Source: Candidatus Methanoperedens sp. (GTDB lineage Archaea > Halobacteriota > Methanosarcinia > Methanosarcinales > Methanoperedenaceae). Taken from it: DNA of 32,000 nucleotides. The translations under genes and the position numbers were made by a program. Shown one piece after another: positions 1-15,751 of the stretch (within the stretch, counting starts at the first letter, position 1; each line of letters opens with the position of its first letter). The notes under the pieces are model-generated. The model searched no databases, was not told where the DNA came from, and was given only the letters and a program-made list of their open reading frames with translations. The stretch covers positions 150,001 to 182,000 of the forward strand of contig JAPZAR010000010.1 in assembly GCA_027460535.1 (NCBI GenBank). Direction: 5' to 3'.

Positions 1-332
1 TCTCGAGGAGTTCTCAACCTTTCGAATTTAGATATTTTAATCCAGGTAGAACTTGGATCATGTTTCCCACCATCTGAAAAATATCCATTAAAGCACTGTT
101 GCCTGAAAGGAGGAATAAATTGATGTTCATTTTTCATTTCTTTTAATCTATCCCTGCTTATCACCCACTCCACTTTGCACTTCCACTCGACATTCCCAGA
201 AATGGTGGTATAAACATACCCATCAAAAGGTCCTTTCAACTCTGTTCTTTTTGCCGCAGAATCCCAATAAACAGCGCCCTTTTTTCTTAGGAACCTTAGA
301 TTTTCTTCTACATCAGCCTCTTCACGAGGCAT
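1..332 (-). CDS. hypothetical protein, N-terminal part only (gene runs off the left edge)
   Basis: Absent from the ORF track because no stop is reached. ATG at 332-330 (GAGG 11 nt upstream) opens an uninterrupted minus-strand frame to position 1, about 110 codons (MPREEADVEENLRFLRKKGAVYWDS...STWIKISKFERLRTP). An in-frame TAA lies just upstream of the ATG. No family recognised. Confidence 0.35.
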   Translation of the reverse strand, partial: MPREEADVEENLRFLRKKGAVYWDSAAKRTELKGPFDGYVYTTISGNVEWKCKVEWVISRDRLKEMKNEHQFIPPFRQQCFNGYFSDGGKHDPSSTWIKISKFERLRTPR

Positions 333-407: not shown

Positions 408-905
408 TTACGTCATCTCAAACTTTTCGAACCTCTCCTTCTTTGCCCTGCATATCGGACAAAGGTCAGGGGGCTCTTCCCGCGCGCAGAGATATCCGCA
501 TACGGTGCACCTGTAAACTTCGGCCATTTCATTTCCTCCTGCTCCTTCTTGTTCTGCCATAGCCGGATAGCCTTTCTCATAATATTCCTGCGGCCTCCGC
601 TCCGGAATGGGATTGCGCGGCTTCTTACCTGCGATCCAGTCATCGCTCACATAAAGAACGCACAGGCAGCAGCCATACTCCACGATATCGGCATCGCGGT
701 AGTTGCACGGGCAGACGATATCCATATCATCTGCAAGGACACCGCCTGCCATCCTGCAGGGACACGATGGGTATCCGTACCTGTGGATATTCTCCCACAG
801 GCCATCGAGGACATCATCAAGTTCCTGCTGGACAGGGTTGAACTGGTAGCCCTCCTCTTCCGCGATCTTTTTCATTTCATCGAACATGTCATCAATATTT
901 CTCAT
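408..905 (-). CDS. ferredoxin:thioredoxin/disulfide reductase catalytic-subunit-like domain fused to a C-terminal rubredoxin domain
   Basis: FTR-catalytic Cys pattern CPCR...CPC...CCLC (the canonical third element is CHC). The C-terminal YRCTVCGY...CPICRAKKERFEKF is a rubredoxin CxxC...CxxC knuckle pair. Start overlaps the upstream stop by 4 nt (ATGA at 902-905). Confidence 0.8.
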   Translation of the reverse strand: MRNIDDMFDEMKKIAEEEGYQFNPVQQELDDVLDGLWENIHRYGYPSCPCRMAGGVLADDMDIVCPCNYRDADIVEYGCCLCVLYVSDDWIAGKKPRNPIPERRPQEYYEKGYPAMAEQEGAGGNEMAEVYRCTVCGYLCAREEPPDLCPICRAKKERFEKFEMT

Positions 906-1156
906 AACCCGAGTGCCTCTTTCAATTCATCCTCGTAGAACCCCACGATCACTTTTTTCCCGATCACGATCGTAGGAAAACGCAAGCCACCGCTGAGTTT
1001 CATTACCTCTGCACGGATTTCATCCCTCTCTTTGCCATCCAATTTATCCACGTCCACATAGTCATAATCAATCCCGTGTTCTTTCAAAAATCGCTTTGTA
1101 GCCCTGCAATGCATGCAGGTGCTAAGCGTGTAGAGTTTTGCTTTTATCTTTTTCAT
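902..1156 (-). CDS. glutaredoxin-like / small thioredoxin-fold protein
   Basis: 84 aa with an N-terminal beta-strand followed by the active-site-like CMHC (LYTLSTCMHCRATKRFL). The C-terminal FPTIVIGKKVIVGF is typical of the Grx/NrdH fold. ATGA overlaps at both ends. Confidence 0.75.
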   Translation of the reverse strand: MKKIKAKLYTLSTCMHCRATKRFLKEHGIDYDYVDVDKLDGKERDEIRAEVMKLSGGLRFPTIVIGKKVIVGFYEDELKEALGL

Positions 1157-2115
1157 GGTCCGTGCATCTCCTTATGTTCCTCGGTAACAGCATGATGCTC
1201 TTCCGGCAATTCAATTTCGCATACTTCCGGTGCGCCTTTTTCATTATAGTGCAGGTTCCATTTCTTGCAGACCCACATCTGGAGCGTCTTTATGTCTTCC
1301 TCGCTCATGTGCCTGAACCTGCCCTGCATCATGATATAATCTTTAACTGATTTCATTTTCCCTGGTTTATAGGTGATCCTTTTCTCACCGTTCTCAACTT
1401 CGTACAAAGTCCACATCCCGCTCTCAACCGCGCGCTTTGTGACTTCCACGGTCTTGGAAGGGTCCATCTTCCATCCAGGAATGCATGGCGTGAACATGTG
1501 GAGGAAGCGGAAGCCTTTGATATCCTTAGCCTTCTCGACCTTCCTTATGAAATCAAGAGGATGGCCGATGGAAAGCGTTGCATAATATGGTATCTCATGT
1601 GCTACCACGATATCACCAAGGTTTTTCTTGAAACGCCTGTTCCCCTGGATCTTGCTGCCTACCGGGGTGGTCGTGGTCCACGCGCCGAACGGCGTCCCTC
1701 CGCTTCGCTGTATCCCTGTGTTCATGTACGCCTCGTTATCAAGACATATGTAAAGCACATCATCATTGCGCTCCGCCGCTCCTGACATACTCTGCAGGCC
1801 TATGTCATATGTCCCGCCGTCACCGGCAAACCCGACAGTAATGACTTTTTTTCCTTTTTGCTCAAATGCCGCCTGCATGCCCGTCAGGCATGCGCCTGTG
1901 TTCTCAAATGCCGTGTGGAAAAAAGGCACTTTCCATGCACCGTACGGGAATGTGGTACCGAACACAACTGCACAACTTGCGGGGACATACACAGATGTCT
2001 CCTTTCCAAGAACCCGAATTGCATTCCGGATGGACATCGCGACCCCGCATCCGGGACAGGCTGTATGGCCCGCTGTGAACAGGTTTTCATCAGAGAGTGT
2101 CTTGATCGTTATCAA
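1153..2115 (-). CDS. 2-oxoacid:ferredoxin oxidoreductase, beta (TPP-binding) subunit
   Basis: N-terminal GHTACPGCG motif and GDGG TPP-binding motif (GFAGDGGTYDIGLQ). Length is typical of PorB/VorB-type subunits. The start as tracked is TTG, overlapping the alpha stop (TTGA). Substrate (pyruvate, 2-oxoisovalerate or 2-oxoglutarate) is not determinable by eye. Confidence 0.9.
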   Translation of the reverse strand: MITIKTLSDENLFTAGHTACPGCGVAMSIRNAIRVLGKETSVYVPASCAVVFGTTFPYGAWKVPFFHTAFENTGACLTGMQAAFEQKGKKVITVGFAGDGGTYDIGLQSMSGAAERNDDVLYICLDNEAYMNTGIQRSGGTPFGAWTTTTPVGSKIQGNRRFKKNLGDIVVAHEIPYYATLSIGHPLDFIRKVEKAKDIKGFRFLHMFTPCIPGWKMDPSKTVEVTKRAVESGMWTLYEVENGEKRITYKPGKMKSVKDYIMMQGRFRHMSEEDIKTLQMWVCKKWNLHYNEKGAPEVCEIELPEEHHAVTEEHKEMHGP

Positions 2116-3284
2116 AGGCTCTCACCTCGCGTGTTATGCCAGTTCACGGGCTTCACTTTTTCACCCTTCGCCGCTTTCAGGGTTATCTCGAACATATCCC
2201 TTATCTGCTCCTTAGTCACATCCCTTCCTCCGAGGCCCGCAAGATGATTAACGATCGGTATCGACATACCATAAAGAGCAGAGCGCACCTCGTTGCATGC
2301 AGGTCCTCCGCCATGGTATGATATCGAACGATCGAAAACTCCGGCAGCGCTTACGTTTGACAGCGCTTCCCTCAATTCCTCATTTGGAAATGGCCTGAAG
2401 AACCTTAGCTTGATGAGTCCGGCTTTTTTCCCTTCTTTCCTTAACTCATCCACCACTTCGCGCGACGTACTTGTGACAGTGCCCATGGTGATCAATGCTA
2501 CCTCTGCATCATCCATCCGGTATTTTTCGATCATGCCGCCATAATTTCTTCCAAATACTTTCGCAAATTCATCGTTTATCTCCCCGATCACTTTTTTTGC
2601 GGATTCAACAGCACCTGCGGTCTGCCTGCGCAGTTCCATTATGTACTCGGCTGGCATGAACGTCCCTATCATCGCCGGTCTTTTCGGATCAAGGATAATA
2701 TCGGGTGTATAGGCAGGCAAAAATGAATCCACATCCTGCTGCGCCGGGACATCCACGGGTTCGACCGTATGGGTGAGCACAAAACCATCAAGGCAAGGCA
2801 TTACAGGAAGCAGTACGCGTTTATCCTCGGCTATCCTGTAGGACTGGATTACCATGTCCAGAGCCTCCTGGTTATCTTCTACATAAACCTGGAGCCATCC
2901 CGAATCACGCGCCCCCATGGAATCATTATATTCACACCAGATGCCGGGCGGACCGCCAAGAGTGCGGCTGGCATTCGCCATCACGACCGGAAGCCGCAGG
3001 GGCGCTGTAGCATAAAGCATCTCGTGCATGAAGGCAAGCCCCTGGGAAGAAGTTGCCGTGAACACCCTTGCCCCGGCTGCAGAAGCAGCAGCAGCCGCGC
3101 TCATAACGCTGTGCTCGGATTCCATAGTGAGAAATTTTGCGTCCAGTTCCCCATCATTCACAAAATCCGCGATATGTTCGATGATGAGCGTCTGCGGTGT
3201 GATCGGATATGCCGGCACTACCTCTACGCGGCAGAGTTTTGCGCCCAGAGCGACAGCATGGTCGCCCGTGATGACTTTCATCAT
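2112..3284 (-). CDS. 2-oxoacid:ferredoxin oxidoreductase, alpha subunit
   Basis: [31 protein letters not shown]... is a classic PorA/VorA N-terminus. I place the start at ATG 3284 (ATGA overlap with the gamma-delta stop at 3281-3283) rather than at the ORF-track 3323. Confidence 0.9.
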
Positions 3285-4180
3285 ACCCTCGCCCTCACCA
3301 TTTTTATTGCGTCCACCGGGCATTCATTGGCGCACACGCCGCATCCTTTGCAGTAATCATAATTGGTCATGAGGTCTCCCCTGTCGGAGATGCGCACGAT
3401 GGTCCCTTCTGGGCAATAGAACCAGCACAAAAGGCACATGGTGCATTTTTCTTTATCGCGCAGCGGGCGGAACGTTGCCCAGCCCATGACCTTGTTCTCG
3501 ATAAAACTCCCAGGGCCTATAAGCCCGGCGTCTGTTTTTCCCTCAATGAGGGCGCCACCTACAGGGAGATCCTGGTACGCTGGAAGCCATTGCTTTTTCG
3601 GTTCAAGTTTCTTAATCCCCTTGCTTTTCCCTGTAACAGTTCTTTCATACGCTGTCCTTGCTGCAAGGGCGTTCCTCTCCCCGACCTTTTCACCGAGTTT
3701 TTCACCAAACCTTCTCTTGATAGCCTCCTCCAGCGATTCGAGCTTGATAATCCCCGTCACTTTCGCAAATGCACCGAGGATGGCAGTGTTGGTTATAGGG
3801 GCTTTCAGTATCTCAAGCGCCACAGAGGTCGCATTTACCGCCCCCGTTTGAATACTGACACCGAGGTCTATGTCCTCCGGTCTATCCTTCGAATTTATGA
3901 CTACCGAGCCCCCGGGTTTCAGACCCGATACGACATCTATGGTATCAAGAAGGGAATCGTCAAGAACTACGACGCAATCCGGAGAATATACCTGCGTTTT
4001 GCTGAATATCTTTTTGGCGTCTATTCTCGTAAATGCAAGAACAGGCGCGCCCCGTCTTTCCGCTCCGAAAAAAGGAAAAGCTACCGCATAATTCCCTTCG
4101 ATTACGGCTGCCTCAGCAAGCGCCTGGGCAGCCATGACGGCACCCTGCCCTCCCCTGCCGTGAAAGCGCACTTCAAACAT
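3281..4180 (-). CDS. 2-oxoacid:ferredoxin oxidoreductase, fused gamma-delta subunit
   Basis: The N-terminus [19 protein letters not shown] is a gamma-subunit signature. The C-terminal 90 aa carry two ferredoxin motifs ([12 protein letters not shown] and [12 protein letters not shown]), matching the delta subunit. The gamma-delta-alpha-beta gene order is the archaeal por/vor order. Confidence 0.9.
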
Positions 4181-4186
4181 GCACTC

Positions 4187-4417
4187 TTACTCACATGCAC
4201 CCGGCATTAAGATATTGCCGCATTCCTGGCAAACGAATCTTGGCAGACCTTTCTTCAGTACCTTGACTGGCGCCGGGTATCCCCCCTGCCATATCGGCAG
4301 ATCGATCCTGTGAGCATGTTCCATGCAAAGTCCCTTTCCGCACATTATACAAAGGGCAACAGCTTCCTCAGTAGACCCCTGGTCTGCACATTCATAGCAT
4401 TTCAACATAACAATCAC
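4187..4417 (-). CDS. small Cys-rich metal-binding protein (DUF2180-like), paralog B
   Basis: Pattern CYEC-x14-CIMCGKGLCMEH-x(n)-CQEC. Paralogous to the adjacent gene. The tracked start is GTG 4417 (GTGA overlap); the true start may be ATG 4408 (MLKCYEC). Confidence 0.6.
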   Translation of the reverse strand: MIVMLKCYECADQGSTEEAVALCIMCGKGLCMEHAHRIDLPIWQGGYPAPVKVLKKGLPRFVCQECGNILMPGACE

Positions 4418-4665
4418 CAGTTCTCCTTTAAGGCTTCATGACACGGCTGGCAGAGTATCCTTTTCATTTTCTCGATATCCTTTTCAAGTCTCACAGGATA
4501 ATCTCCTTTCCATACAGGCGTTTCTTCGTAGATCGCGTGATCCATGCATACGCCCATTCCGCAAACGATACATGCAGCCACAGCATCAACATCTTTACCC
4601 ATTTTAGCGCACAAATAACATTTCAAATCATTCACTCTCCTCTTCACTTGCCATAAGTCCTTCAC
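4414..4665 (-). CDS. small Cys-rich metal-binding protein (DUF2180-like), paralog A
   Basis: Pattern CYLC-x14-CIVCGMGVCMDH-x(n)-CQPCH. The tracked start (GTG 4665) overlaps the McrC 3' end by 38 nt. A downstream in-frame GTG (VNDLKCYLC) would reduce the overlap to 8 nt, so the start is uncertain. Confidence 0.6.
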   Translation of the reverse strand: MKDLWQVKRRVNDLKCYLCAKMGKDVDAVAACIVCGMGVCMDHAIYEETPVWKGDYPVRLEKDIEKMKRILCQPCHEALKENW

Positions 4666-5317
4666 TTATCAACAGGTCGCTCCTGACAGCATGGGTCTCC
4701 TCAATCCTCTGGCTCAATTCGTAGCGAATCACTTTAGCCAGTTCATTCAGGTTACCCCTCGAACATGTCTCGCCCCTGGTTATGCCGCTTACAATAGCGA
4801 CCACAGTGCCTTCTGTTTCTGGGTTTTTCGGTCTTATGTATTTTGTCTTTATCCCCGCTTTTGCAAAATCCTCATAATCGATAGGATATTCACAGGCTAT
4901 GACGGCAGGTATGTTGACATATTTCAGTATCTTCTTGGTTTTTAATACTATGTGGGAATTAACATTACCCATGTGTATCAGCACAAGTTTGTGCCTGGCT
5001 ATCTGCTCTATCTCCTTCGCCGTCAGCCCGAATGAAGCACCATAACCTTTTGAAGCTGTGGTGCTCCCAACTTCGTCCATGGGAACCCCTGCCCCAGCCT
5101 CGAGCACCAGAACGCTTACCTGGATTCCCTCCCTTCGAAGCCCGTAGGTGATCTCACACACCGGTTTGGTGATATGCCTCCGCCCCGGCGTCATAGCGAT
5201 CGCAACAACATCTGGCCTTGCTGCCTCGGACAGGGTACCGCGCTGGGCAATGCCGCCCCCGCGCCCAAGTCCCATGGCTTCCCTGCAATCGACCAGCTGT
5301 GTATCCCTTCCAATCAT
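4628..5317 (-). CDS. mcrC: methyl-coenzyme M reductase operon protein C family (McrC / methanogenesis-marker-7-like)
   Basis: MIGRDTQLVDCREAMGLGRGGGIAQRGT...MTPGRRHITKPVCEITYGLRREGIQVSVLVLEAG...LIHMGNVNSHIV matches the conserved McrC core as I recall it from methanogen McrC. Start placed at ATG 5317, which forms an ATGA overlap with the upstream stop (5314-5316). The ORF track starts at 5344. Confidence 0.75.
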   Translation of the reverse strand: MIGRDTQLVDCREAMGLGRGGGIAQRGTLSEAARPDVVAIAMTPGRRHITKPVCEITYGLRREGIQVSVLVLEAGAGVPMDEVGSTTASKGYGASFGLTAKEIEQIARHKLVLIHMGNVNSHIVLKTKKILKYVNIPAVIACEYPIDYEDFAKAGIKTKYIRPKNPETEGTVVAIVSGITRGETCSRGNLNELAKVIRYELSQRIEETHAVRSDLLISEGLMASEEESE

Positions 5318-5733
5318 TTCTTTATACCGAGCGTGGTTTCCCACGTATCTGCATGGCCTTCCTCATCAGAGAGGATTTCTTCGAGCATGAGTCTTGTTGT
5401 GGGGTCACCCTCCTGGATCGCAAGCTTGATATGCTCTTTATATTGGTTGATCGCCCCGTTCTCTTTTGCGAGGTCATCCTGGATCATTTTCTTTAGATCC
5501 CCGCCTTCTACGATCGGTGATGGTTTCTTCGTCGGGGTCCCGCCGAGGTACACTATGCGTTCACCCAGCTTTTCAGCGTGCTTCATCTCATCCTTGGCCG
5601 TCGATTTGAATATCTCAAGTATTGCGGCACTCTCCATCCCCTCCCCCTCATAATGGTGCTTCATATACTGTATTATTGCGCTCAACTCATCTTCCCGATC
5701 TTTGTTCAATGCGTCAATTATTTTGTTGCTCAT
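5314..5733 (-). CDS. bacterioferritin-like ferritin-family protein
   Basis: Di-iron ligand pattern E(18)...DEMKHAEKL...SDEEGHADTW. DEMKHA is identical to the E. coli Bfr ferroxidase/haem-Met region. A strong SD (GGGAGGAG) lies 2 nt upstream of the ATG. Confidence 0.75.
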   Translation of the reverse strand: MSNKIIDALNKDREDELSAIIQYMKHHYEGEGMESAAILEIFKSTAKDEMKHAEKLGERIVYLGGTPTKKPSPIVEGGDLKKMIQDDLAKENGAINQYKEHIKLAIQEGDPTTRLMLEEILSDEEGHADTWETTLGIKK

Positions 5734-5752: not shown

Positions 5753-5771
5753 TTCATTGATAATCAATGAA
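5753..5771. promoter_or_regulatory. 19-bp perfect palindrome TTCATTGAT-A-ATCAATGAA (Fur/PerR-box-like core TGATAATCA) downstream of a TATA-like TTAAAATA
   Basis: Directly visible perfect 9+1+9 inverted repeat in the 64-nt gap between the AhpD-like gene and the bfr-like gene. On the coding (minus) strand a TATA-like element (complement of about 5779-5786) sits immediately upstream, so the palindrome would cover the expected transcription start. Confidence 0.35.
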
Positions 5772-5797
5772 TACTAAAGTATTTTAACCTTTTTTAG

Positions 5798-6193
5798 TTA
5801 CCTCGGTCTTCTGCCGGGGGTACAACCATGGCCACCGTGCCCTTCTTTACCCTGCAGCATGTTCAGGGCTTTCCTGCACGATGCCACGCCCGGGGCTCCT
5901 GATGTTATGAAAATGACATTCATCGTTTCCATAATCTCTTCCTTCGTGGCGCCGTGGTTCAAAGCGCTCCTCATCTGTGATTCGCAGCATACATCGCATC
6001 TCTGCGATGCCATAACCGCAAGTGACATCAGAACTTTAACCTTTGCTGGGAGGGCACCATCCTCCTGTATCCCGTCATCGCATTTCTTGTAATGCTCGAA
6101 CAATTCCGGATTCATCTCCTCCATCATGTTCATGATCTCAGGGGTGAATCCCATCTTACCGTCGATGCTTTCGATTACTTTCTTTGGTTCCAT
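5798..6193 (-). CDS. carboxymuconolactone decarboxylase / AhpD-like family protein
   Basis: LPAKVKVLMSLAVMASQRCDVCCESQMRSALNHGATKEEIMETM is an AhpD/CMD-fold helix pair with CxxC. Start placed at ATG 6193 (GGGAG 9 nt upstream); the ORF track starts at 6217. Confidence 0.7.
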   Translation of the reverse strand: MEPKKVIESIDGKMGFTPEIMNMMEEMNPELFEHYKKCDDGIQEDGALPAKVKVLMSLAVMASQRCDVCCESQMRSALNHGATKEEIMETMNVIFITSGAPGVASCRKALNMLQGKEGHGGHGCTPGRRPR

Positions 6194-6223
6194 TATTATT
6201 TTCTCCCATATTATCATTGTTCA

Positions 6224-6610
6224 TTATTGATTTAATCCTTTTCCTAAATTCGAAAGGATCTCACTTATTCCTGTCTTGTGCCTTTTTTCGTCTTGCATCG
6301 ACTGCTCAAAAAAATGGGATGCCTCTTTATTACCCTCTGCCTTCGCAATTATTGCGGCCTCTGCCTTGTCTTTTTCTGCCCTTATTTCACCCGCCAGCAT
6401 CGCCACCAGGTTCGTTCTTGTATCCTTCACCTTGCCAAGAAGGTTTGCAAACTCAGCGGCATGCGCAGCTTCGTCCATTGCCACATCGAATAGATAGGAT
6501 GCTATTTCAAGATGTCCTTCCTGTTCTGCCTTACGGGACATCGCGATATACAGGGCGATATCGTTGGATTCCGAGTCGAAGGTCTTTTCCATTATATCTA
6601 CAGTTTGCAT
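6224..6610 (-). CDS. rubrerythrin-family di-iron protein lacking the rubredoxin domain
   Basis: Two E...ExxH motifs (EQEGH...DEAAHAAEF and EAS...QDEKRH) in a 128-aa four-helix-bundle-sized protein. No C-terminal CxxC pairs. Confidence 0.7.
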   Translation of the reverse strand: MQTVDIMEKTFDSESNDIALYIAMSRKAEQEGHLEIASYLFDVAMDEAAHAAEFANLLGKVKDTRTNLVAMLAGEIRAEKDKAEAAIIAKAEGNKEASHFFEQSMQDEKRHKTGISEILSNLGKGLNQ

Positions 6611-7023
6611 GTTGCCACCTCCACTATCTTTTTTAAGGCATCCTCTGCCTCCACCGCGAGCCCATTCAGTTCATCATAACCCGAAAGAGAACTTGCCGTG
6701 CTCAATGCAACCGTGGGTCTGTACAGCGAGATCTTCGTTTTCCCTTTGTCAGCATATACCACTATCTTGCAGGGAAGGATGAGACCTGCCTGCTTGTTTA
6801 TCGAAAGCCCCCTGTGGGCAAGAACCGGATTGCAGACATCCATTATAATATAATCGTCGTATTCTATTTTGAGTTTCTCTGCCAGGATCTTTCTTACATC
6901 GATCACGCTCAACACTCCCCATTTGTTGTCCATCAGATCTTTTGTAAGCTTTTCCACGGCGGATTTTACACTCAATTTTGATTCTCTTGTGTAATCAATC
7001 ATCACTTCCATCTCCGTATGCAT
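6598..7023 (-). CDS. DUF302 domain protein
   Basis: WGVLSVIDVRKILAEKL...YIIMDVCNPVLAHRGL...AGLILPCKIVVY is the characteristic DUF302 core. The exact start is ambiguous (several Met in the first 8 codons). Confidence 0.65.
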   Translation of the reverse strand: MHTEMEVMIDYTRESKLSVKSAVEKLTKDLMDNKWGVLSVIDVRKILAEKLKIEYDDYIIMDVCNPVLAHRGLSINKQAGLILPCKIVVYADKGKTKISLYRPTVALSTASSLSGYDELNGLAVEAEDALKKIVEVATCKL

Positions 7024-9467: not shown

Positions 9468-12400
9468 ATGATAACTAAAAGGGACATTAAATGGATCATT
9501 TCCGTATTGATCCTTCTGGGCATGGTATATGCAGCTGCAGGACACCTGTTTGAAACCCACATCAATGATATCAAAGCAATAGCACTAATGCCCACTGGAA
9601 CCTCAACGAGCACGGCAACATCTATGGCCCCGGCAACTTTTACTGCCATAGCAGTTACGGGAGATTCTACAGCTACTTTTACAGCAACGGCTACCTCTAC
9701 AACCACAGCGACATCCACGGCCACAGCAACTTCTACGGGTACAGCAACTTCCACTGCCACAGGGACTTCCACGGCAACTGCAACTTCCACTGCCACAGGG
9801 ACCTCCACGGCAACTGCAACCTCTACTGCCACAGGGACCTCCACGGCAACTGCAACCTCCACTGCCACAGCAACTTCTACGGGTACAGCGACTTCTACAA
9901 CCACGGCAACATCTACGGCCAATGCAACTGCTACAACCACAGCAAATTCTACCGCCAATGCAACTGCCGCACCATCGCAAACAGGCTCACCTGCCATAAT
10001 TGACTCCACTCCATTTATGCGGCCGGTATCTGATATTGTGGGCGCATCGCGAACCTTCAGTATCACCCTCAACCAGACCGTAAGTGTTACCTGGTACATC
10101 AATGGAAATCAGGTTCAATCCAATGAAGATGTGACAGAGGCAAGCTATACCAACACCAGTGCAGCCGAGGGCACCTGGTTTATAAGAGCTGCAGCAGGCA
10201 ATGATAATGGCACGGTTTCGGAAGAATGGACATGGATCGTAATTACACCGCAGGAGAAAGCACCTGCAATAACGGCATTTGCCCCTGGAGAATCGCCTGT
10301 CCTTGATATCGAGGGAGCCTCAAGATCTTTCAATATTACCTACGACCAGACTGTAAATGTGGCCTGGTACATCAACGGAATTCCGGTTCAATCCAATGAA
10401 GATGTGACCTCTTCAAGCTATACCAACGCCAGCGCAGTTTTCGGCACATGGATTGTGAACGCTACAGCAACCAACGATAACGGTACAGTTTCGAAAGAGT
10501 GGACCTGGGTGGTGAAAGATATAACACCTCCTGCCAATGTTTCCAATTTGACAGCGACAGGCACAGGTCAAACTTATATAAACTGGACGTGGGAAAATCC
10601 CCCGGATATAGATTTTGACGGAACCAGAATTTTAATAGATGGGAACTTCAAAACCGATCTTCCAAGAACATCAAACGATTACAGTGCTACCGGATTGGCG
10701 CCAGGTACTTCTCATAGTATTACCGTGATCGCCTTCGATATTGCGCAAAACAATGCAACACAACCCTGGCCTGAGAATATGAGTACAACATTGCCAAATA
10801 CCATTCCAGGAGACAATGTCATACCTCTGGGATTGCCATCTGGAGTAATTGCAATTTTCAGCAGGGTTACAGATCAGGGTAACACCGTGATATCAACTAC
10901 CCAAACATCGCCATTAGCTCCGGGCTTCCAGCCACTTGGGAATTATGTGGATATAAGTACATCGGCAAATTTCACAGGTAATGTAACAATTACCCTGAAT
11001 TATACGACACCTCCGGAAGGATATAACGGGAGCAATGTACGCCTGTACCATTTGAACAATGCAGTATGGGAAGACATAACTGAAAATCTTGATACAGACC
11101 ATAATACCGTCACCGGGGAAGCTACAAGTCTGTCTCTTTTCGTCGCCGGGATCTATCCACCGCCTAAAATAGACGTGATTCAAGAACCTCCGAGCCTGGA
11201 AATCACGGTAAAAGATTCGTTATCATTCAATATCAGTGTTGACCAGACAACAAATGTGAACTGGACAGTTAATGGGGAGACCTCCCAAGGCCCTTTTTTG
11301 GTCCAGGCAGGAGGAAATTCCAATTTCACTTTCGCTTCAGCTACCAGGGGAAATTATTCAATAATAGTGGAGGCGAGCAATACTAATGGAACTGACACGA
11401 GATCATGGAATGTGACCGTCCATCCTGAATTCTTCTTCAAGGGGAACCGCATCTGGGACGGCAGTAAACCGGATGAGTTCTCACTCACATACACCTGGGA
11501 CCCCATGAGCTTCTCAGGCTTCTACTATGATGTCAATGATGACGTGGGTGATGAGAGTATCACGATGAGCCTGAATGGCTACAGCGATAGAACCATAAAC
11601 ACTGGCAAGCTCGTGTACACCACATCCCCTCAAGAGGTAAGCTTTGGCTACTCAGGTTTTGGCAGCTTTGAGGTCATAGGTTTCATGGCAGAGAAGTATT
11701 TTGCCGCCTATACATCCAACAGCAATCCTCCAAATCCAACTACAGGCATCGGGTTGAAAAGCGTGCTTGCCCAGGGTCACCTCCACAGGGTACTCATCGA
11801 TGACGATACAAGGCGCACCATATCCCTGGGAGGCACACTCACTCTGCAGGACGGTTATGTCCTGAAGGCAAAAGATATTGACATGAGCGCAAGGACCATG
11901 CTTATCTCCCTGTTAAAAGACGGAAATGAGGTGGATTCAACTCCTCTTTCAGCGGGCCAGACCTATGTTTATACAAAGACAGTGGGGGGTGTAACAGACC
12001 TTCCTTTAATACTGGTCAGATTTGACAGTGTATTCTCAGGTACAGAAGTGCAAGCCGCATTCTTGCAGGGATTGTTCCAAATATCCGAAAGCTATGATAC
12101 AGTTAATACCGGAAATGATTTTGGAGTGATGGAAGTCAGAAGTGTAAGCTTTAACAAAATAGAGATGAGAAATAATGCAGATGTAAGTCTAGATCAGGGA
12201 AGCACAGTGGATCTGATGGGAGATATGAAAATAGCAGTGGCGGATAACAGCAATGCGGTCCGATTTGCCCTCTCTGTTGAAAAAACAGGCAGCTTTGAGG
12301 TAAGGAGCAGTATCTATAGAGAGGATGCCCCGATTGATGAATGGACCCCTTACAACTTCGGGTTGAACATAGGTAAGACCAGTGTCGGTTTTTATTATGA

Positions 12401-14078
12401 CCTGGACGAAGGCATAGGTAATGAGAGCCTGCGGCTTGCAGAACCATTGGATGGCAGCCGAACCATAAATGATGCGGGACTGGTATATACAACTACGCCG
12501 GAGGACGTAAGCTTTGGTTACTCCGGTTTTGGAAGCTATGAAGTCATAGGTTTCATGGCAGAGAAGTATTTCGCGGCCTATACCGCCAGCAGCAACCCCC
12601 CTGATCCAACCACAGGAATCGTTGCGAAGAGCGCGCTTTCTCAGGGCCAACTTCACAAGGTACTGATCGATGATGATACCAAGCGCACCATTTCTGTGGG
12701 AGGCACACTTGCTCTGCAGGAGGGTTATGTCTTGAAGGCAAAAGATATTGACATGAGTGCAAGAACTATGCTTATCTCATTATTAAAAGATGGGAACGAG
12801 GTAGATTCCACGCCCCTTTCCGCCGGTCAGACCTATGTGTACGTAAAGAGAGTTGGGGCAGTGTCAGACCTTCCTATAATAATGGCGAGGTTTGACAGCG
12901 TATTCTCAGGTACGGAAGTGCAGGCTGCGTTCTTGCAGGGATTGTTCCAGGTATCCGAAAACTACGCGACCATCAATACTGGCAATGAATTCGGTATGAT
13001 GGAAGTCAGAAGCGTAAGCAATGATAACATAGAGATGAGTAACGTCGGGAGTATCGGCCTGGATAATGGTGCAAATGAAGTGCTCATGGGAAATATTAAC
13101 CTGAGAGTTGGTGATACGACTGATAATTCTCTGCGATTTTACTTTGCTGTTGATGTGACTCCTGAGACGGTGGCAAATCAGCTCGTAATAGACTCCCCGG
13201 CCCAGGCCACTGCAGGCGATACTGTCGGAATAAAGGTCACCGCGGGCGGAGAATTAATTGAGGGCGCATCCCTGACAATTGATTCTTCCGAGATCGGGCA
13301 AACGGACAGTAATGGTGTTCTTAATTATACTTTTTCCAGAAACATGAAAGGCACCTACAACTTAACTGGAACCAAGCTTGGCTACCAGGAAGACATTAAA
13401 AGCATAAACGTGCTGGAGTATATAGAGCGCAGGCTGAGTATAGATGCTCCTGCTACGGCGAATCAGCTTGATACGATAGTCATAAAAGTCACATCCAATA
13501 GCACAGTCATTAGCAATGCGACTGTGCAATATGATAATACAACCATTGGCTCGACCGATGGTAATGGTACCCTGAACTACACACTGGAAACAAGCGGCAC
13601 GCACGCAATAACAGCTTCAAAAAATGGTTATATCACCGTAGAAAAGGAAATTGACGTCAGGGCACCCTTTTCTCAGTATGAGGCCCTTGATATCAATATC
13701 ACTCCCAATACGGTTTTTACAGATGACGAGGCTGTGATCAAATCCAATATCACAAATGCAGGTACCAAAAAAGATACACTTCCTGTGGAGCTTATAGTCA
13801 ATGGAACTGCCGTGGATAACAGGTCTGTTACTCTCGCCCCCGGGGAGATAGAGGAAGTCAATTTCACACTAAAGGAAGCTGTGGCGGCGAACTATACTCT
13901 TGAGATCCTCGGACAAAAAGAGCTATTTCAAGTCAAAGAAAGGCCTTTTACTTCGAACTTGATCCTGATCGCGGCAATAGCTACAATTTTGGGGGTGATT
14001 GCCATCTACCTGTGGACTGCGAAAAATAAGATAACCCTCGAGTTAATAAAAAGGAAATTGAAGTTTGGAAAGGATTGA
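9468..14078 (+). CDS. S-layer / cell-surface glycoprotein (signal anchor, T/S/A-rich stalk, Ig-like repeats, FN3-like domain, tandem DUF1608 S-layer domains, CARDB-like domains, C-terminal TM anchor)
   Basis: N-terminal hydrophobic signal (IKWIISVLILLGMVYAAAG). 125-aa TSTATATSTGT low-complexity region. Two about 90-aa repeats (SRTFSITLNQTVSVTWYINGNQVQSNEDVT...) plus a diverged third. Two 290-aa DUF1608-like repeats (LVYTT.P..VSFGYSGFG..EVIGFMAEKYFAAY...), as in Methanosarcina S-layer proteins. C-terminal LILIAAIATILGVIAIYLW followed by a basic tail. Many N-x-S/T sequons. Confidence 0.85.
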   Translation: MITKRDIKWIISVLILLGMVYAAAGHLFETHINDIKAIALMPTGTSTSTATSMAPATFTAIAVTGDSTATFTATATSTTTATSTATATSTGTATSTATGTSTATATSTATGTSTATATSTATGTSTATATSTATATSTGTATSTTTATSTANATATTTANSTANATAAPSQTGSPAIIDSTPFMRPVSDIVGASRTFSITLNQTVSVTWYINGNQVQSNEDVTEASYTNTSAAEGTWFIRAAAGNDNGTVSEEWTWIVITPQEKAPAITAFAPGESPVLDIEGASRSFNITYDQTVNVAWYINGIPVQSNEDVTSSSYTNASAVFGTWIVNATATNDNGTVSKEWTWVVKDITPPANVSNLTATGTGQTYINWTWENPPDIDFDGTRILIDGNFKTDLPRTSNDYSATGLAPGTSHSITVIAFDIAQNNATQPWPENMSTTLPNTIPGDNVIPLGLPSGVIAIFSRVTDQGNTVISTTQTSPLAPGFQPLGNYVDISTSANFTGNVTITLNYTTPPEGYNGSNVRLYHLNNAVWEDITENLDTDHNTVTGEATSLSLFVAGIYPPPKIDVIQEPPSLEITVKDSLSFNISVDQTTNVNWTVNGETSQGPFLVQAGGNSNFTFASATRGNYSIIVEASNTNGTDTRSWNVTVHPEFFFKGNRIWDGSKPDEFSLTYTWDPMSFSGFYYDVNDDVGDESITMSLNGYSDRTINTGKLVYTTSPQEVSFGYSGFGSFEVIGFMAEKYFAAYTSNSNPPNPTTGIGLKSVLAQGHLHRVLIDDDTRRTISLGGTLTLQDGYVLKAKDIDMSARTMLISLLKDGNEVDSTPLSAGQTYVYTKTVGGVTDLPLILVRFDSVFSGTEVQAAFLQGLFQISESYDTVNTGNDFGVMEVRSVSFNKIEMRNNADVSLDQGSTVDLMGDMKIAVADNSNAVRFALSVEKTGSFEVRSSIYREDAPIDEWTPYNFGLNIGKTSVGFYYDLDEGIGNESLRLAEPLDGSRTINDAGLVYTTTPEDVSFGYSGFGSYEVIGFMAEKYFAAYTASSNPPDPTTGIVAKSALSQGQLHKVLIDDDTKRTISVGGTLALQEGYVLKAKDIDMSARTMLISLLKDGNEVDSTPLSAGQTYVYVKRVGAVSDLPIIMARFDSVFSGTEVQAAFLQGLFQVSENYATINTGNEFGMMEVRSVSNDNIEMSNVGSIGLDNGANEVLMGNINLRVGDTTDNSLRFYFAVDVTPETVANQLVIDSPAQATAGDTVGIKVTAGGELIEGASLTIDSSEIGQTDSNGVLNYTFSRNMKGTYNLTGTKLGYQEDIKSINVLEYIERRLSIDAPATANQLDTIVIKVTSNSTVISNATVQYDNTTIGSTDGNGTLNYTLETSGTHAITASKNGYITVEKEIDVRAPFSQYEALDINITPNTVFTDDEAVIKSNITNAGTKKDTLPVELIVNGTAVDNRSVTLAPGEIEEVNFTLKEAVAANYTLEILGQKELFQVKERPFTSNLILIAAIATILGVIAIYLWTAKNKITLELIKRKLKFGKD
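9744..9870 (+). repeat. 36-bp tandem repeat, about 3.5 copies, encoding (ATSTATGTSTAT)n inside the surface-protein gene
   Basis: Units start at 9744, 9780, 9816 and 9852 (gcaacttccactgccacagggacttccacggcaact), with 1-3 substitutions between copies. They are embedded in a broader degenerate ACN/GCN/TCN repeat region, 9594-9970. Confidence 0.85.
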
Positions 14079-14140: not shown

Positions 14141-15529
14141 CTACCTTAACCAGCCCCGCCTGTAGAAAACATATAATGCCAGGAGCATTATGGAAAGCTC
14201 AAGGAAGAATATCTCTGATAGCCTGACCGGATATGGACTGTCTATCAGGTTCTCCCCAAAGAGCCCGCTTATGATTGAAGGTATGAGTCCGAGGCTTGTT
14301 ATCACCGCTAGTATCCTCATTACCCTGTTTAACCCGACGGATACTGTATTTATGCGAAGATCGATCAACGATATCAGATTGTCCCTGATGGTGTCAGATG
14401 TCTCAGAAAGGTAAACTGATTCATCAAAGAGAATGCCGAAGAGGGAAGGATATTCATCCTTCAAGCCGGGCAACATTTTTCTCGTTCTAACAGCCCCCAG
14501 CACCTGCCTAAAATGCAAGAGGTTGCTGTGGATTTTCTGGATCTCCCTCTTAAAGTAGAACGATCTCTCAAGGAACGGATGCATCTGACCTACGGGTAGT
14601 TCTTCCAGTGCCGTTATGTCTTGCTCCATTGACCGCACGATCTCTTCATAATCACTGATTTTTCTGCTGAAGATCGAGTATAGAATTCTGACAATAAAAT
14701 CCTCATCCTTCACCGACAGGCCATCATTTATCAGATCAAATAGCTCGCTTTTGTTATTGGAAATGGTGACGATGTAGTTGTCGGCCCATGCAATGAGCAT
14801 ATTATTTCTCAGGATTTGTACGGTTTTGGTATCCGCATCTTCTGATCGCAGTTTATAGTCCCTGATGAAGATAGTGGTGAGGTTCTTGAAGAAATCGATC
14901 TTTGGGTAGGATTCCTTGATTATTTTGCTTTCCAGCACAACCCCTGGGATTTTGAGCGTGTCACTCAAAAAACCAATATCGAGCTCCGAAACCTCCTGAA
15001 GGTCGATCCAGATATGCCCCGGGGCAGCAATATAACGGGCAATATCTTCCTTTGCTGCACCTTTTATGATCCTGCCATCCTCGAGGATGTTGATTTTCAT
15101 CTGTGAGACAAGCGGAGTAACCTTCTCCATTGGTCTTACCGGGATCGCCCTTTTGACTGTCCTGCCAGCAACAGCAAATATCCTAGCAACCCGCAACAAC
15201 GGAAAGATCCTTCCTATTCCTCCCAGCGGTATCCGCGGAATGAAATTCGTGGCAGCAAGGATAGCGATCAGAAGGTCTATGATGTGCCACGGCTCAGTAG
15301 CATATGCCTTCCTCGAATCTGCTACGTACAGCTTTAAGAAGTACTCCAGAATGAATATCACAAGGATAGCATCTCTAACTGCCCTGAACAAAGCCAGCAT
15401 GAACTGCGAGAAAGTAAATAAGGCGGGCAAAAAAATAACCGGGATCAGTATCAGTGCAAGCACTATCATCAGGTGATCGGTCAGTATCTGATAAACCGGT
15501 TCCCTAAGTTTGGCACGCAGGGATTGCAT
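14141..15529 (-). CDS. chimeric membrane protein: N-terminal voltage-sensor-like domain (S1-S4) fused to a CorA-family divalent-cation channel
   Basis: S2 FILEYFLKLY, S3 PWHIIDLLIAILA and S4 GRIFPLLRVARIFAVAGRTVKR match ion-transport-family voltage-sensor hallmarks. Next comes a CorA-like cytoplasmic domain (HIWIDLQEVSELDIGFLSDTLKIP...). The C-terminal two TMs read LAVITSLGLIPSIISGLFGENL, with GEN where GMN is canonical. Start placed at ATG 15529 (MQSLRAKL); the ORF track extends to 15646. Confidence 0.75.
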   Translation of the reverse strand: MQSLRAKLREPVYQILTDHLMIVLALILIPVIFLPALFTFSQFMLALFRAVRDAILVIFILEYFLKLYVADSRKAYATEPWHIIDLLIAILAATNFIPRIPLGGIGRIFPLLRVARIFAVAGRTVKRAIPVRPMEKVTPLVSQMKINILEDGRIIKGAAKEDIARYIAAPGHIWIDLQEVSELDIGFLSDTLKIPGVVLESKIIKESYPKIDFFKNLTTIFIRDYKLRSEDADTKTVQILRNNMLIAWADNYIVTISNNKSELFDLINDGLSVKDEDFIVRILYSIFSRKISDYEEIVRSMEQDITALEELPVGQMHPFLERSFYFKREIQKIHSNLLHFRQVLGAVRTRKMLPGLKDEYPSLFGILFDESVYLSETSDTIRDNLISLIDLRINTVSVGLNRVMRILAVITSLGLIPSIISGLFGENLIDSPYPVRLSEIFFLELSIMLLALYVFYRRGWLR

Positions 15530-15751
15530 AATGTTTGTTTTATATGTCTTATAAGAAATACTCTTGGTAAGGAAATGATAGATCAAAGGTCTATAGCCAT
15601 TTCTCATGACGGTAAATCCTATTCTAGGCAGCCTTGAACAAGTCACAAGCTAATTTGTGTTAAACTGAAATGCTTTAATCCCTCCATACCCGGGATGTTT
15701 ATTTAAGCGAAGCTGCCAATATGGGGATAGGAGTAAGACGGAGTAGAATTT

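Follow-up and report, generated by a model that had tools for sequence, protein, structure and literature searches.

The single mcrC gene of the Methanoperedenaceae lies in a conserved operon of ferredoxin and thiol-redox genes

Why should the gene for McrC, a subunit of the complex that activates methyl-coenzyme M reductase (MCR), lie outside the mcr operon and in the middle of a set of redox genes? The question is raised by a 32-kb window (the whole stretch of DNA analysed here) from a metagenome-assembled genome (MAG) of Candidatus Methanoperedens, in which nine consecutive open reading frames (ORFs) at 408–5733 on the minus strand place mcrC between a ferritin gene and genes for two small DUF2180 proteins, a 2-oxoacid:ferredoxin oxidoreductase (OFOR), a glutaredoxin-like (Grx-like) redoxin and a ferredoxin:disulfide reductase (FDR). 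A first-pass annotation of this DNA took the cluster for a dedicated module for the ferredoxin-driven activation, or the post-oxidative repair, of MCR. We found that the arrangement is conserved throughout the Methanoperedenaceae, that it holds the only mcrC of each genome surveyed, and that its OFOR is probably, at least in strain BLZ2, a second pyruvate:ferredoxin oxidoreductase (POR). With slightly less than even confidence, we read the cluster as the Methanoperedenaceae-specific home of mcrC: an ancestral archaeal ferredoxin/thiol antioxidant module that would have recruited mcrC and a second POR into one regulated transcription unit, with its own promoter and operator, for redox recovery, probably including the reactivation of MCR.

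Nine coupled genes around a single-copy mcrC

The translations and the reverse strand were read directly, and the nine genes and their coordinates agree with the first-pass annotation. In the order of the unit, they are as follows.

5314–5733, minus strand: mini-bacterioferritin of 139 aa, which opens the unit (PF00210, 105.9 bits; PDB 9QQ4)
4628–5317, minus strand: McrC, 229 aa, MCR activation complex subunit (TIGR03264; PDB 8S7V chain I)
4414–4635, minus strand (start at 4626, 4635 or 4665): DUF2180a, Cys/His-rich mini-protein of ~70–83 aa (PF09947, 108 bits)
4187–4417, minus strand: DUF2180b, 76 aa, tandem paralogue of DUF2180a (PF09947, 100 bits)
3281–4180, minus strand: POR-type OFOR gamma-delta fusion, 299 aa (PF01558 and two 4Fe-4S motifs, Fer4; PRK08534 PorC)
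2112–3284, minus strand: OFOR alpha, 390 aa (PF01855 and PF17147; PorA_Arch 503.8 against 550; 9BT4_B)
1153–2115, minus strand: OFOR beta, 320 aa, thiamine pyrophosphate (TPP)-binding, with a His/Glu-rich C-terminal tail (PF02775; PorB 386 against a cutoff of 405)
902–1156, minus strand: Grx-like redoxin, 84 aa, active site CMHC (PF00462, 62.6 bits; PDB 3NZN, 3IC4, 5CAX)
408–905, minus strand: FDR, FTRc catalytic domain with a C-terminal rubredoxin-like domain, 165 aa (PF02943 and PF21349; PDB 4TPU)

The genes are joined by ATGA at 5314–5317 (ferritin stop and McrC start), GTGA at 4414–4417 (DUF2180a/DUF2180b), a 6-nt gap at 4181–4186 (DUF2180b/OFOR gamma-delta), ATGA at 3281–3284 (gamma-delta/alpha), TTGA at 2112–2115 (alpha/beta), ATGA at 1153–1156 (beta/Grx-like) and ATGA at 902–905 (Grx-like/FDR), all as first annotated. 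The junction between McrC and DUF2180a has to be redrawn: the proposed overlap at 4628–4665 relies on an unlikely upstream GTG, and because the spacing of these genes across species is −8 to +8 nt, a start at GTG ~4635 or TTG ~4626 is favoured.

The 229-aa protein is a genuine McrC, as the first-pass annotation had it. The 238-aa ORF scored 295.6 bits against TIGR03264 (cutoff 213.5) over residues 12–208 and gave a full-length match to chain I of the activation-complex structure 8S7V (E = 6.6e-69; query 2–199, chain 39–231). Mmp7 was ruled out as its identity by a score of 24.5 bits against TIGR03274, which requires 349.15. Among named relatives, the closest are the McrC of other Candidatus Methanoperedens, such as that of M. 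nitroreducens (88% identity), and the exact sequence recurs on a 143-kb contig of MAG GCA_027460495.1 and, with the same 12-gene block, in several independent assemblies. When one genome of every GTDB species was scanned, each of 30 Methanoperedenaceae assemblies had one mcrC locus, with no mcrB, mcrD, mcrG or mcrA within 10 kb of it. The M. nitroreducens mcr operon is known to lack mcrC, which lies at another place (ANME2D_00875; review PMC9081873), and the mcr genes of strain BLZ2 carry consecutive tags in the order mcrB-D-G-A. Because mcrC is single-copy and the mcr operon is mcrBDGA without it, the McrC of the cluster is the housekeeping McrC, which presumably serves the same ATP-driven Ni(II)-to-Ni(I) machine as in methanogens.

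The protein is a clear orthologue of the McrC in component A3a (McrC-Mmp7-Mmp17-Mmp3-A2-DUF2098) of Methanococcus maripaludis and of Methanothermobacter marburgensis (PMC12176620; Prakash et al. 2014, as cited in PMC9081873). Unlike in the A3a organisms, mcrC of Methanoperedens is not part of mcrBDCGA but of a redox operon, and no Mmp or A2 genes adjoin it. The outgroups ANME-2a/b/c (anaerobic methanotrophic archaea, ANME) and Methanocellaceae also retain mcrBDCGA. The McrC of M. maripaludis binds a small protein annotated without a function, DUF2098 (PMC12176620), whereas the small neighbours here are DUF2180, with no similarity to it detected by sequence or fold. A further difference from other McrC proteins is an acidic C-terminal extension of ~26 residues in Methanoperedens (window 4628–4710; ...ELSQRIEETHAVRSDLLISEGLMASEEESE). 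It is absent from the McrC of ANME-2a/b/c, Methanothrix and Methanocella, matches to which end near residue 203, and is probably missing in the divergent lineage L096 (McrC of 210 aa). This tail could be a docking site for lineage-specific partners.

Conservation and the promoter region

Conservation was surveyed with tblastn searches of the window proteins against the loci of the 30 Methanoperedenaceae species, the genomes of which are MAGs, so that gene absences could be assembly artefacts. The DUF2180a-DUF2180b pair directly followed McrC in 28 of the 30 species, and the OFOR gamma-delta, alpha and beta genes followed the pair in 26 of 28 informative loci, a figure that counts only contigs reaching far enough (two further contigs end too early). 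Grx-FDR was present in every locus with >1 kb of downstream sequence (23/23), and a ferritin gene lay 5' of McrC in 25 loci. The junctions were conserved with the genes: the spacing was ≤8 nt from McrC to DUF2180a (30/30 loci) and ≤1 nt from OFOR alpha to beta (28/28), OFOR beta and the Grx-like gene overlapped by 4 nt (25/25), and nearly every junction in 31 loci was a 4-nt overlap or a gap of ≤15 nt. One locus without DUF2180 (L027) still has McrC, Grx and FDR together, and L096 has the order DUF1858-McrC-DUF2180x2-OFOR-Grx-FDR in wholly different surroundings, with a gamma-delta protein 70% identical to that in the window. With 26 of the 28 informative species loci and L096 sharing it, the adjacency of McrC, OFOR and FTRc-rubredoxin noted in the first pass is not peculiar to this genome.

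None of the 10 genes flanking the cluster in the window was found near McrC in any of the 30 other species. Because gene order and junctions are kept and yet no flanking gene is shared (0/10), the arrangement goes well beyond chance, the cluster has been kept by selection, and residual synteny was rejected as the cause of its conservation. A first thought from M. nitroreducens, that the OFOR is a sporadic insertion, was overturned by its presence in 26 of the 28 informative loci. Two local peculiarities were also observed. In L020, L026, L027 and L038, 151–723 nt are inserted between the Grx-like and FDR genes, which otherwise overlap by 4 nt. In the divergent lineage (L096:165–3254), the cluster has, within a few kilobases, FixS, a cupredoxin and a gene fusion resembling COX1/FixO/cytochrome-cbb3 (879 aa); one would not expect such haem-copper oxidase or NO-reductase-like genes in a relative of ANME.

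A 64-nt gap separates the ferritin gene from the genes upstream of it, among which the same-strand block continues (5798–7023). The features of the gap and of this extension are as follows.

5753–5771, no strand: putative operator, perfect palindrome TTCATTGAT-T-ATCAATGAA, overlapping the expected transcription start
5780–5795, minus strand: transcription factor B recognition element (BRE)/TATA-like element AAAAAAGG TTAAAATA, read from the sequence, a candidate promoter
5798–6217, minus strand: CMD/AhpD-like protein (PF02627)
6224–6610, minus strand: rubrerythrin without a rubredoxin domain, 128 aa (PF02915)
6598–7023, minus strand: DUF302 protein (PF03625)

In the gap, the BRE/TATA-like element AAAAAAGGTTAAAATA (5780–5795) is followed ~21 nt downstream by the palindrome and then by a ribosome-binding site, GGGAGGAG; the block AAAAAGTTAAAATAC upstream of the ferritin gene is kept in most Methanoperedens species. 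The palindrome is unique in the window, with matches in 0 of 100 shuffles. In 15 other species it recurs 35–43 nt 5' of the ferritin ATG, in some of them with one more half-site; elsewhere in the fetched loci it is all but absent. Its general form is TTCATTGA-N-TCAATGAA. It probably serves as the operator for a repressor and overlaps the expected start of transcription, and the BRE/TATA-like element would be the promoter. Because all gaps 3' of this promoter in the window are ≤6 nt, mcrC and the OFOR genes must be transcribed from the ferritin promoter or from promoters inside coding sequence. The palindrome loosely resembles the AT-rich palindromes of the Fur/PerR type; its extra half-site was seen in loci of the M. 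nitroreducens lineage. The genes upstream of the gap are variable: CMD was found in 23, rubrerythrin in 17 and DUF302 in 11 of the 30 species.

The redox genes and their other contexts

The OFOR is predicted to be of the POR type, with pyruvate as its substrate. The gamma-delta protein passes the PorC model PRK08534 (231.7 bits, cutoff 225), the scores for PorA_Arch (503.8 against 550), PorB (386.4 against 405) and PorD_Arch (101.2 against 120) lie just under the equivalog cutoffs, and the OFOR subunits match the POR models with clearly higher scores than they do the VOR, KOR, IOR and oxalate models. The best PDB match of the alpha subunit is the PFOR alpha chain 9BT4_B (E = 1e-104), followed by oxalate oxidoreductase (E = 7e-86). 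In the translations, the beta subunit contains the TPP motif GDG...N (GFAGDGG...NEAYMN) and the delta part two CxxCxxCxxxCP motifs. The order gamma, delta, alpha, beta and the TPP and Fe-S motifs are shared with the four-subunit archaeal POR (porCDAB; 9BT4) and with the fused OFORs of Thermoplasmata. Unlike in the four-subunit enzyme, gamma and delta are fused here and PorA, PorB and PorD fall short of their cutoffs. Orthologues of the fused gamma-delta protein, with 60–66% identity, occur in Thermoplasmata and other archaea as three-gene units alone, without Grx, FDR or McrC, whereas the OFOR here is embedded in an McrC/thiol-redox operon. Past the PorB profile, the beta subunit carries a lineage-specific His/Glu-rich C-terminal tail (window 1153–1240; …CEIELPEEHHAVTEEHKEMHGP) that contains a Cys and may be a metal-binding or regulatory extension.

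Strain BLZ2, the genome of which has the full cluster (L030), encodes a canonical four-gene por_1 (porA/B/C/D, PADDDONK_03372-75) and a three-gene por_2 in the order porC-porA-porB without porD (PADDDONK_03897-99), according to the supplementary tables of PMC13079737. Because the three-gene order and the missing porD fit the gamma-delta fusion, we take por_2 to be the OFOR of the cluster. The enzyme (hereafter POR2) would then be a second POR and not the housekeeping one, at least in BLZ2. For that strain, the first-pass annotation's caveat that the OFOR might be the sole housekeeping POR is rejected.

The FDR scored 67.9 bits for PF02943 and 50.5 bits for PF21349 and matched 4TPU_A, which we take to be the FDR of Methanosarcina acetivorans, from end to end (E = 2.5e-42), in an alignment that pairs the CPC...CPC...CxC and the CxxC...CxxC motifs of the two proteins. 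The Grx-like protein, with CMHC at residues 14–17, matched PDB 3NZN, 3IC4 and 5CAX (the last presumably methanoredoxin) with E values of 6e-20 to 1e-15, and fell under the cutoffs of the NCBIfam equivalogs YruB, NrdH and Grx3. Because a single PDB chain, 7PWE, fuses the two proteins (the Grx-like protein matches its residues 5–84, and FTRc residues 87–194), a direct redox partnership between them is supported. Ferredoxin-dependent reduction of the redoxin by FDR is suggested by this fusion, by adjacency and by the 4-nt gene overlap, and the ferredoxin-to-dithiol relay proposed in the first pass is credible. The FDR enzymes of M. acetivorans have been catalogued (PMC7278568), and the same two-protein pair, a [4Fe-4S] FTR-type domain fused to a rubredoxin-like domain and adjoining a small Grx-fold CxxC protein, constitutes the FDR and NrdH/Grx-like relay of the class III ribonucleotide reductase (RNR) operon in Methanosarcina barkeri (Wei et al. 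2015, as cited in PMC11846895; PMC7278568). In contrast to that operon (nrdDG), the genomic clients here are McrC, POR2, DUF2180 and bacterioferritin, and the active site is CMHC. The rubredoxin domain of the FDR (408–520) is of the rubrerythrin type (PF21349), whereas the upstream rubrerythrin (6224–6610) lacks the usual C-terminal rubredoxin; for this reason, the FDR domain might be a further electron donor to the truncated rubrerythrin.

The first gene was initially called bfr-like. Its place in the ferritin family stands, but it fails the classical bfr model TIGR00754 (73.5 bits, cutoff 125.55; 139 aa against ~158), and its precise identity is mini-bacterioferritin: it is 88% identical over residues 1–139/1–139 (E = 1.4e-75) to PDB 9QQ4, an entry entitled 'Mini-bacterioferritin from Candidatus Methanoperedens species BLZ2' (1.07 Å, released April 2026). 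A single-sequence AlphaFold model of the window protein was poor (pLDDT 54). Together with the upstream rubrerythrin and CMD genes, the ferritin gene follows the same logic as known oxidative-stress clusters (rubrerythrin, AhpD/CMD, OsmC, superoxide reductase, Dps/Bfr). McrC was absent from every antioxidant cluster sampled outside the Methanoperedenaceae.

The two DUF2180 proteins far exceed the Pfam gathering cutoff (108 and 100 bits against 22.2; PF09947). No variation was seen at C7, C10, C23, C26, C31, H34 and C63, and almost none at C66; these eight ligands (seven Cys and one His) are enough for two predicted metal sites. DUF2180b gave a confident AlphaFold model (pLDDT 82), and DUF2180 had no significant PDB relative by sequence or fold, nor any likeness of either kind to the chains of 8S7V. 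No DUF2180 was found near McrC in 50 outgroup mcrC loci. A metagenome scan with a DUF2180 alignment recovered further Methanoperedens clusters and many other archaeal loci. In 12 of the latter, an FTRc-like gene stands immediately upstream of the tandem a-b pair, with OsmC (for example, FTRc (91 aa)-rubredoxin-DUF2180a-DUF2180b-OsmC in L133, to which L128 adds a divergent Grx-FDR pair), and in eight the pair lies directly upstream of a CMD/AhpD-like gene, as in L148 (DUF2180a-b-CMD-desulfoferrodoxin (superoxide reductase)-multihaem cytochrome-FMN reductase). On one fragmentary metagenome contig (L125), the pair is followed by OFOR genes. A Pfam census of 60 neighbouring ORFs from 45 distinct non-Methanoperedens loci counted FeThRed_B (8), OsmC (5), CMD (3), desulfoferrodoxin (1) and rubrerythrin (1), as well as DUF2193 (16) and MIP channels (10), the last two flanking single-copy DUF2180 genes. 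Because the pair has FTRc, OsmC and CMD neighbours without McrC elsewhere, it belongs with ferredoxin/thiol antioxidant genes and not with McrC as such.

The idea of DUF2180 as an McrC-specific partner or DUF2098 analogue was set aside, and is kept as a low-probability reading, in view of its lack of likeness to 8S7V, its absence from the 50 outgroup loci, and the FTRc/OsmC/CMD settings of the pair. A purely antioxidant DUF2180 needs qualifying as well, since the single-copy genes (L150–L179, L093–L095) have a DUF2193 protein of ~500 aa on one side and an MIP-family channel on the other, a context unrelated to that of the tandem pair; a bacterial member lies beside an MIP/dihydroxyacetone-kinase cluster. 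A full-text search of the open-access literature found no paper on DUF2180 by its family name.

The rest of the window is of a different character. A partial ORF 3' of the FDR gene (1–330, minus strand; MPREEADVEENLRFLRKKGAVYWDS...) runs off the window end and corresponds in L001 to a 136-aa gene without a Pfam match; beyond it, the source contig has a MazE/PIN toxin–antitoxin pair and then a stand-alone 65-aa rubredoxin-like gene. On the other side lie a 1536-aa S-layer-type protein (9468–14078), a fused ion-transport/CorA protein (14141–15646) and, in the remainder up to 31249, a surface-glycosylation cluster (GT2, GT4, PMT-like, Wzt-type ABC ATPase, B12-radical SAM enzyme). The GC content of this cluster drops to 0.37–0.39 at ~21–23, 25–26 and 29–30 kb, against ~0.46 elsewhere, which suggests that these patches are horizontally acquired cassettes.

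What the operon may do

In our preferred reading, the ancestral module would have comprised FDR, the Grx-like redoxin and the DUF2180 pair, with Bfr, CMD and rubrerythrin; the Methanoperedenaceae ancestor would have added mcrC and POR2, and the M. nitroreducens lineage would later have lost the POR. The operon would be derepressed on redox disturbance, be it by oxidants, nitrite, metal oxides or the loss of methane-derived reducing power. POR2 would then produce reduced ferredoxin from pyruvate, independently of MCR, and FDR would pass the ferredoxin electrons to the redoxin, a step in which the DUF2180 metal fingers may take part as carriers or partners. The redoxin would re-reduce protein and cofactor disulfides and feed thiol peroxidases, the mini-bacterioferritin would sequester iron and limit iron-driven damage, and the extra, co-induced McrC would help the ATP-driven activation complex to return MCR from Ni(II) to Ni(I). 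The direction of electron flow, its targets and the inducing signal are those that we infer. Redox recovery has a particular logic in a methanotroph because all low-potential electrons normally come from methane via MCR itself. From other work, it is known that heterodisulfide promotes MCR inactivation (PMC9081873) and that dithiothreitol (DTT) supports MCR activation in vitro (PMC9081873, PMC12176620); what donates electrons to the activation complex in the cell is still undefined, with ferredoxin and DTT-like donors under discussion (PMC12176620).

Several observations weigh against this reading. Any physical link between McrC and its neighbours is, again, one that we infer, and mmp7, mmp17, mmp3 and A2 were not found in the window or among the called genes of the annotated loci. 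In Methanotrichaceae, a stand-alone mcrC adjoins unrelated genes and has no redox neighbours. The OFOR is absent from both genomes of the M. nitroreducens lineage, in which DUF2180b is followed after 6 nt by Grx-FDR, and both DUF2180 genes are missing in two species. An iron-responsive instead of a redox-responsive regulon is equally possible. In BLZ2, under CH4/nitrate, CO/nitrate and CO/CO2, respectively, the mean transcripts per million (TPM) were 132, 328 and 1209 for porC_2 and 59,539, 108,329 and 5,906 for mcrA, and under CO/CO2, por_2 was up while mcrBDGA was down ~60-fold. From the course of porC_2 and mcrA over the three conditions, por_2 expression is independent of, and opposite to, that of the mcr structural genes. 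Stress or starvation accounts for the rise under CO/CO2 better than service to MCR does, and an anabolic role is equally possible. These tables cover por_2 and not the adjoining locus tags, where mcrC is expected, and the equation of por_2 with the cluster OFOR comes from gene order and the missing porD.

Among the rival explanations, the one that survives best holds that mcrC is a passenger: on leaving the mcr operon, it landed in a generic oxidative-stress or iron operon and was kept there by translational coupling, or by the benefit of co-expression with iron supply for a protein rich in Fe-S, with no biochemical interaction. The antioxidant and iron components do occur elsewhere without McrC, the operon opens with an abundant mini-bacterioferritin, the operator-like site precedes the ferritin gene, and the position of McrC seems to be free, because it stands alone with unrelated neighbours in Methanotrichaceae. 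However, mcrC has never been split from the module in 31 lineages with 70–94% protein identity, although the flanks were reshuffled; the junctions remain ≤8 nt, and there is a functional rationale for the association, MCR being oxidant-sensitive and in need of reductive reactivation. We consider a mere passenger to be unlikely, if by no means negligible.

At the opposite extreme, all the genes would serve MCR in a linear chain from the OFOR to ferredoxin, FDR, the Grx-like dithiol and finally the McrC complex or MCR-bound disulfides, much as the first-pass annotation envisaged. The Grx-like dithiol would then be the physiological counterpart of DTT, and it speaks for this reading that DTT works in vitro and that the natural donor is still undefined. 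The coupling of the sole mcrC to the unit across the family argues for such a chain, as does the persistence of McrC, Grx and FDR together in the OFOR-less M. nitroreducens genomes and in L027, which lacks DUF2180. Nevertheless, nothing here shows this single chain, and we regard it as distinctly doubtful: DUF2180x2/FTRc/CMD/OsmC modules exist without McrC in other archaea, the M. nitroreducens lineage does without the OFOR, por_2 and mcrBDGA transcripts run in opposite directions, the ferritin, AhpD-like and rubrerythrin genes are generic stress genes, and mmp7, mmp17, mmp3 and A2 are not in the cluster. For the same reasons, and because the ferritin and upstream genes point to oxidative or iron stress, the post-oxidative repair of the first-pass annotation fits better than its dedicated activation chain.

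A further reading, which we think rather improbable, is that the cluster is a 'jump-start' kit, an MCR-independent restart for ANME, in which all reducing power comes from methane via MCR and whose MCR, once oxidised, cannot yield the low-potential electrons for its own reactivation. Storage polymers would supply the pyruvate from which POR2 makes reduced ferredoxin; FDR, the Grx-like dithiol and DUF2180 would form a natural DTT equivalent, clearing disulfides and/or donating electrons to the McrC-Mmp complex; and the DUF2180 proteins would be lineage-specific small subunits docking on McrC, as DUF2098 does in Methanococcus.

Disulfide-based protection is known for the PFOR of Desulfovibrio. 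A unit centred on the POR, in which Grx/FDR (and DUF2180) would be thiol-switch activators or protectors of the oxygen-sensitive second POR, POR2 an anabolic pyruvate synthase and McrC incidental, could draw on the tightest junction of the unit (OFOR beta/Grx, −4 in 25/25 loci), on the regulation of por_2 with carbon and electron supply instead of with mcr, and on the Cys in the lineage-specific beta tail, but it is most improbable given that Grx-FDR remain with McrC-DUF2180 where the OFOR is absent, that the same fused OFOR type occurs without Grx or FDR in Thermoplasmata and other archaea, and that the FTRc-DUF2180 association elsewhere involves no OFOR.

The components of the operon are all from known families, and the position of mcrC outside the mcr operon of M. 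nitroreducens has been published. In the open-access literature, the paper behind PDB 9QQ4 (which may discuss the gene context) not being among what was searched, the conserved McrC-DUF2180x2-POR2-Grx-FDR operon and its bfr promoter and operator were nowhere described; nor did we find an account of its restriction to the Methanoperedenaceae or of the wider DUF2180/FTRc/OsmC/CMD association, or anything relevant on stress transcriptomes of Methanoperedens.

The electron supply and the thiol/disulfide state required for the reductive activation of MCR are still open questions after the activation-complex structure of 2025, and they limit the heterologous expression of active MCR for methane bioconversion. 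The family-wide tie of the sole mcrC to a ferredoxin generator and an FDR/redoxin pair supplies candidate proteins that could replace DTT or Ti(III) when activation is assayed in vitro. The cluster also gives DUF2180 a first functional context and the solved Methanoperedens mini-bacterioferritin a genomic one, and its conserved operator-like site could lead to a redox or iron stress regulator in ANME-2d. For the family itself, the operon suggests, in a form open to testing, how archaea that oxidise methane by respiring nitrate and metals may keep, or restore, active MCR.

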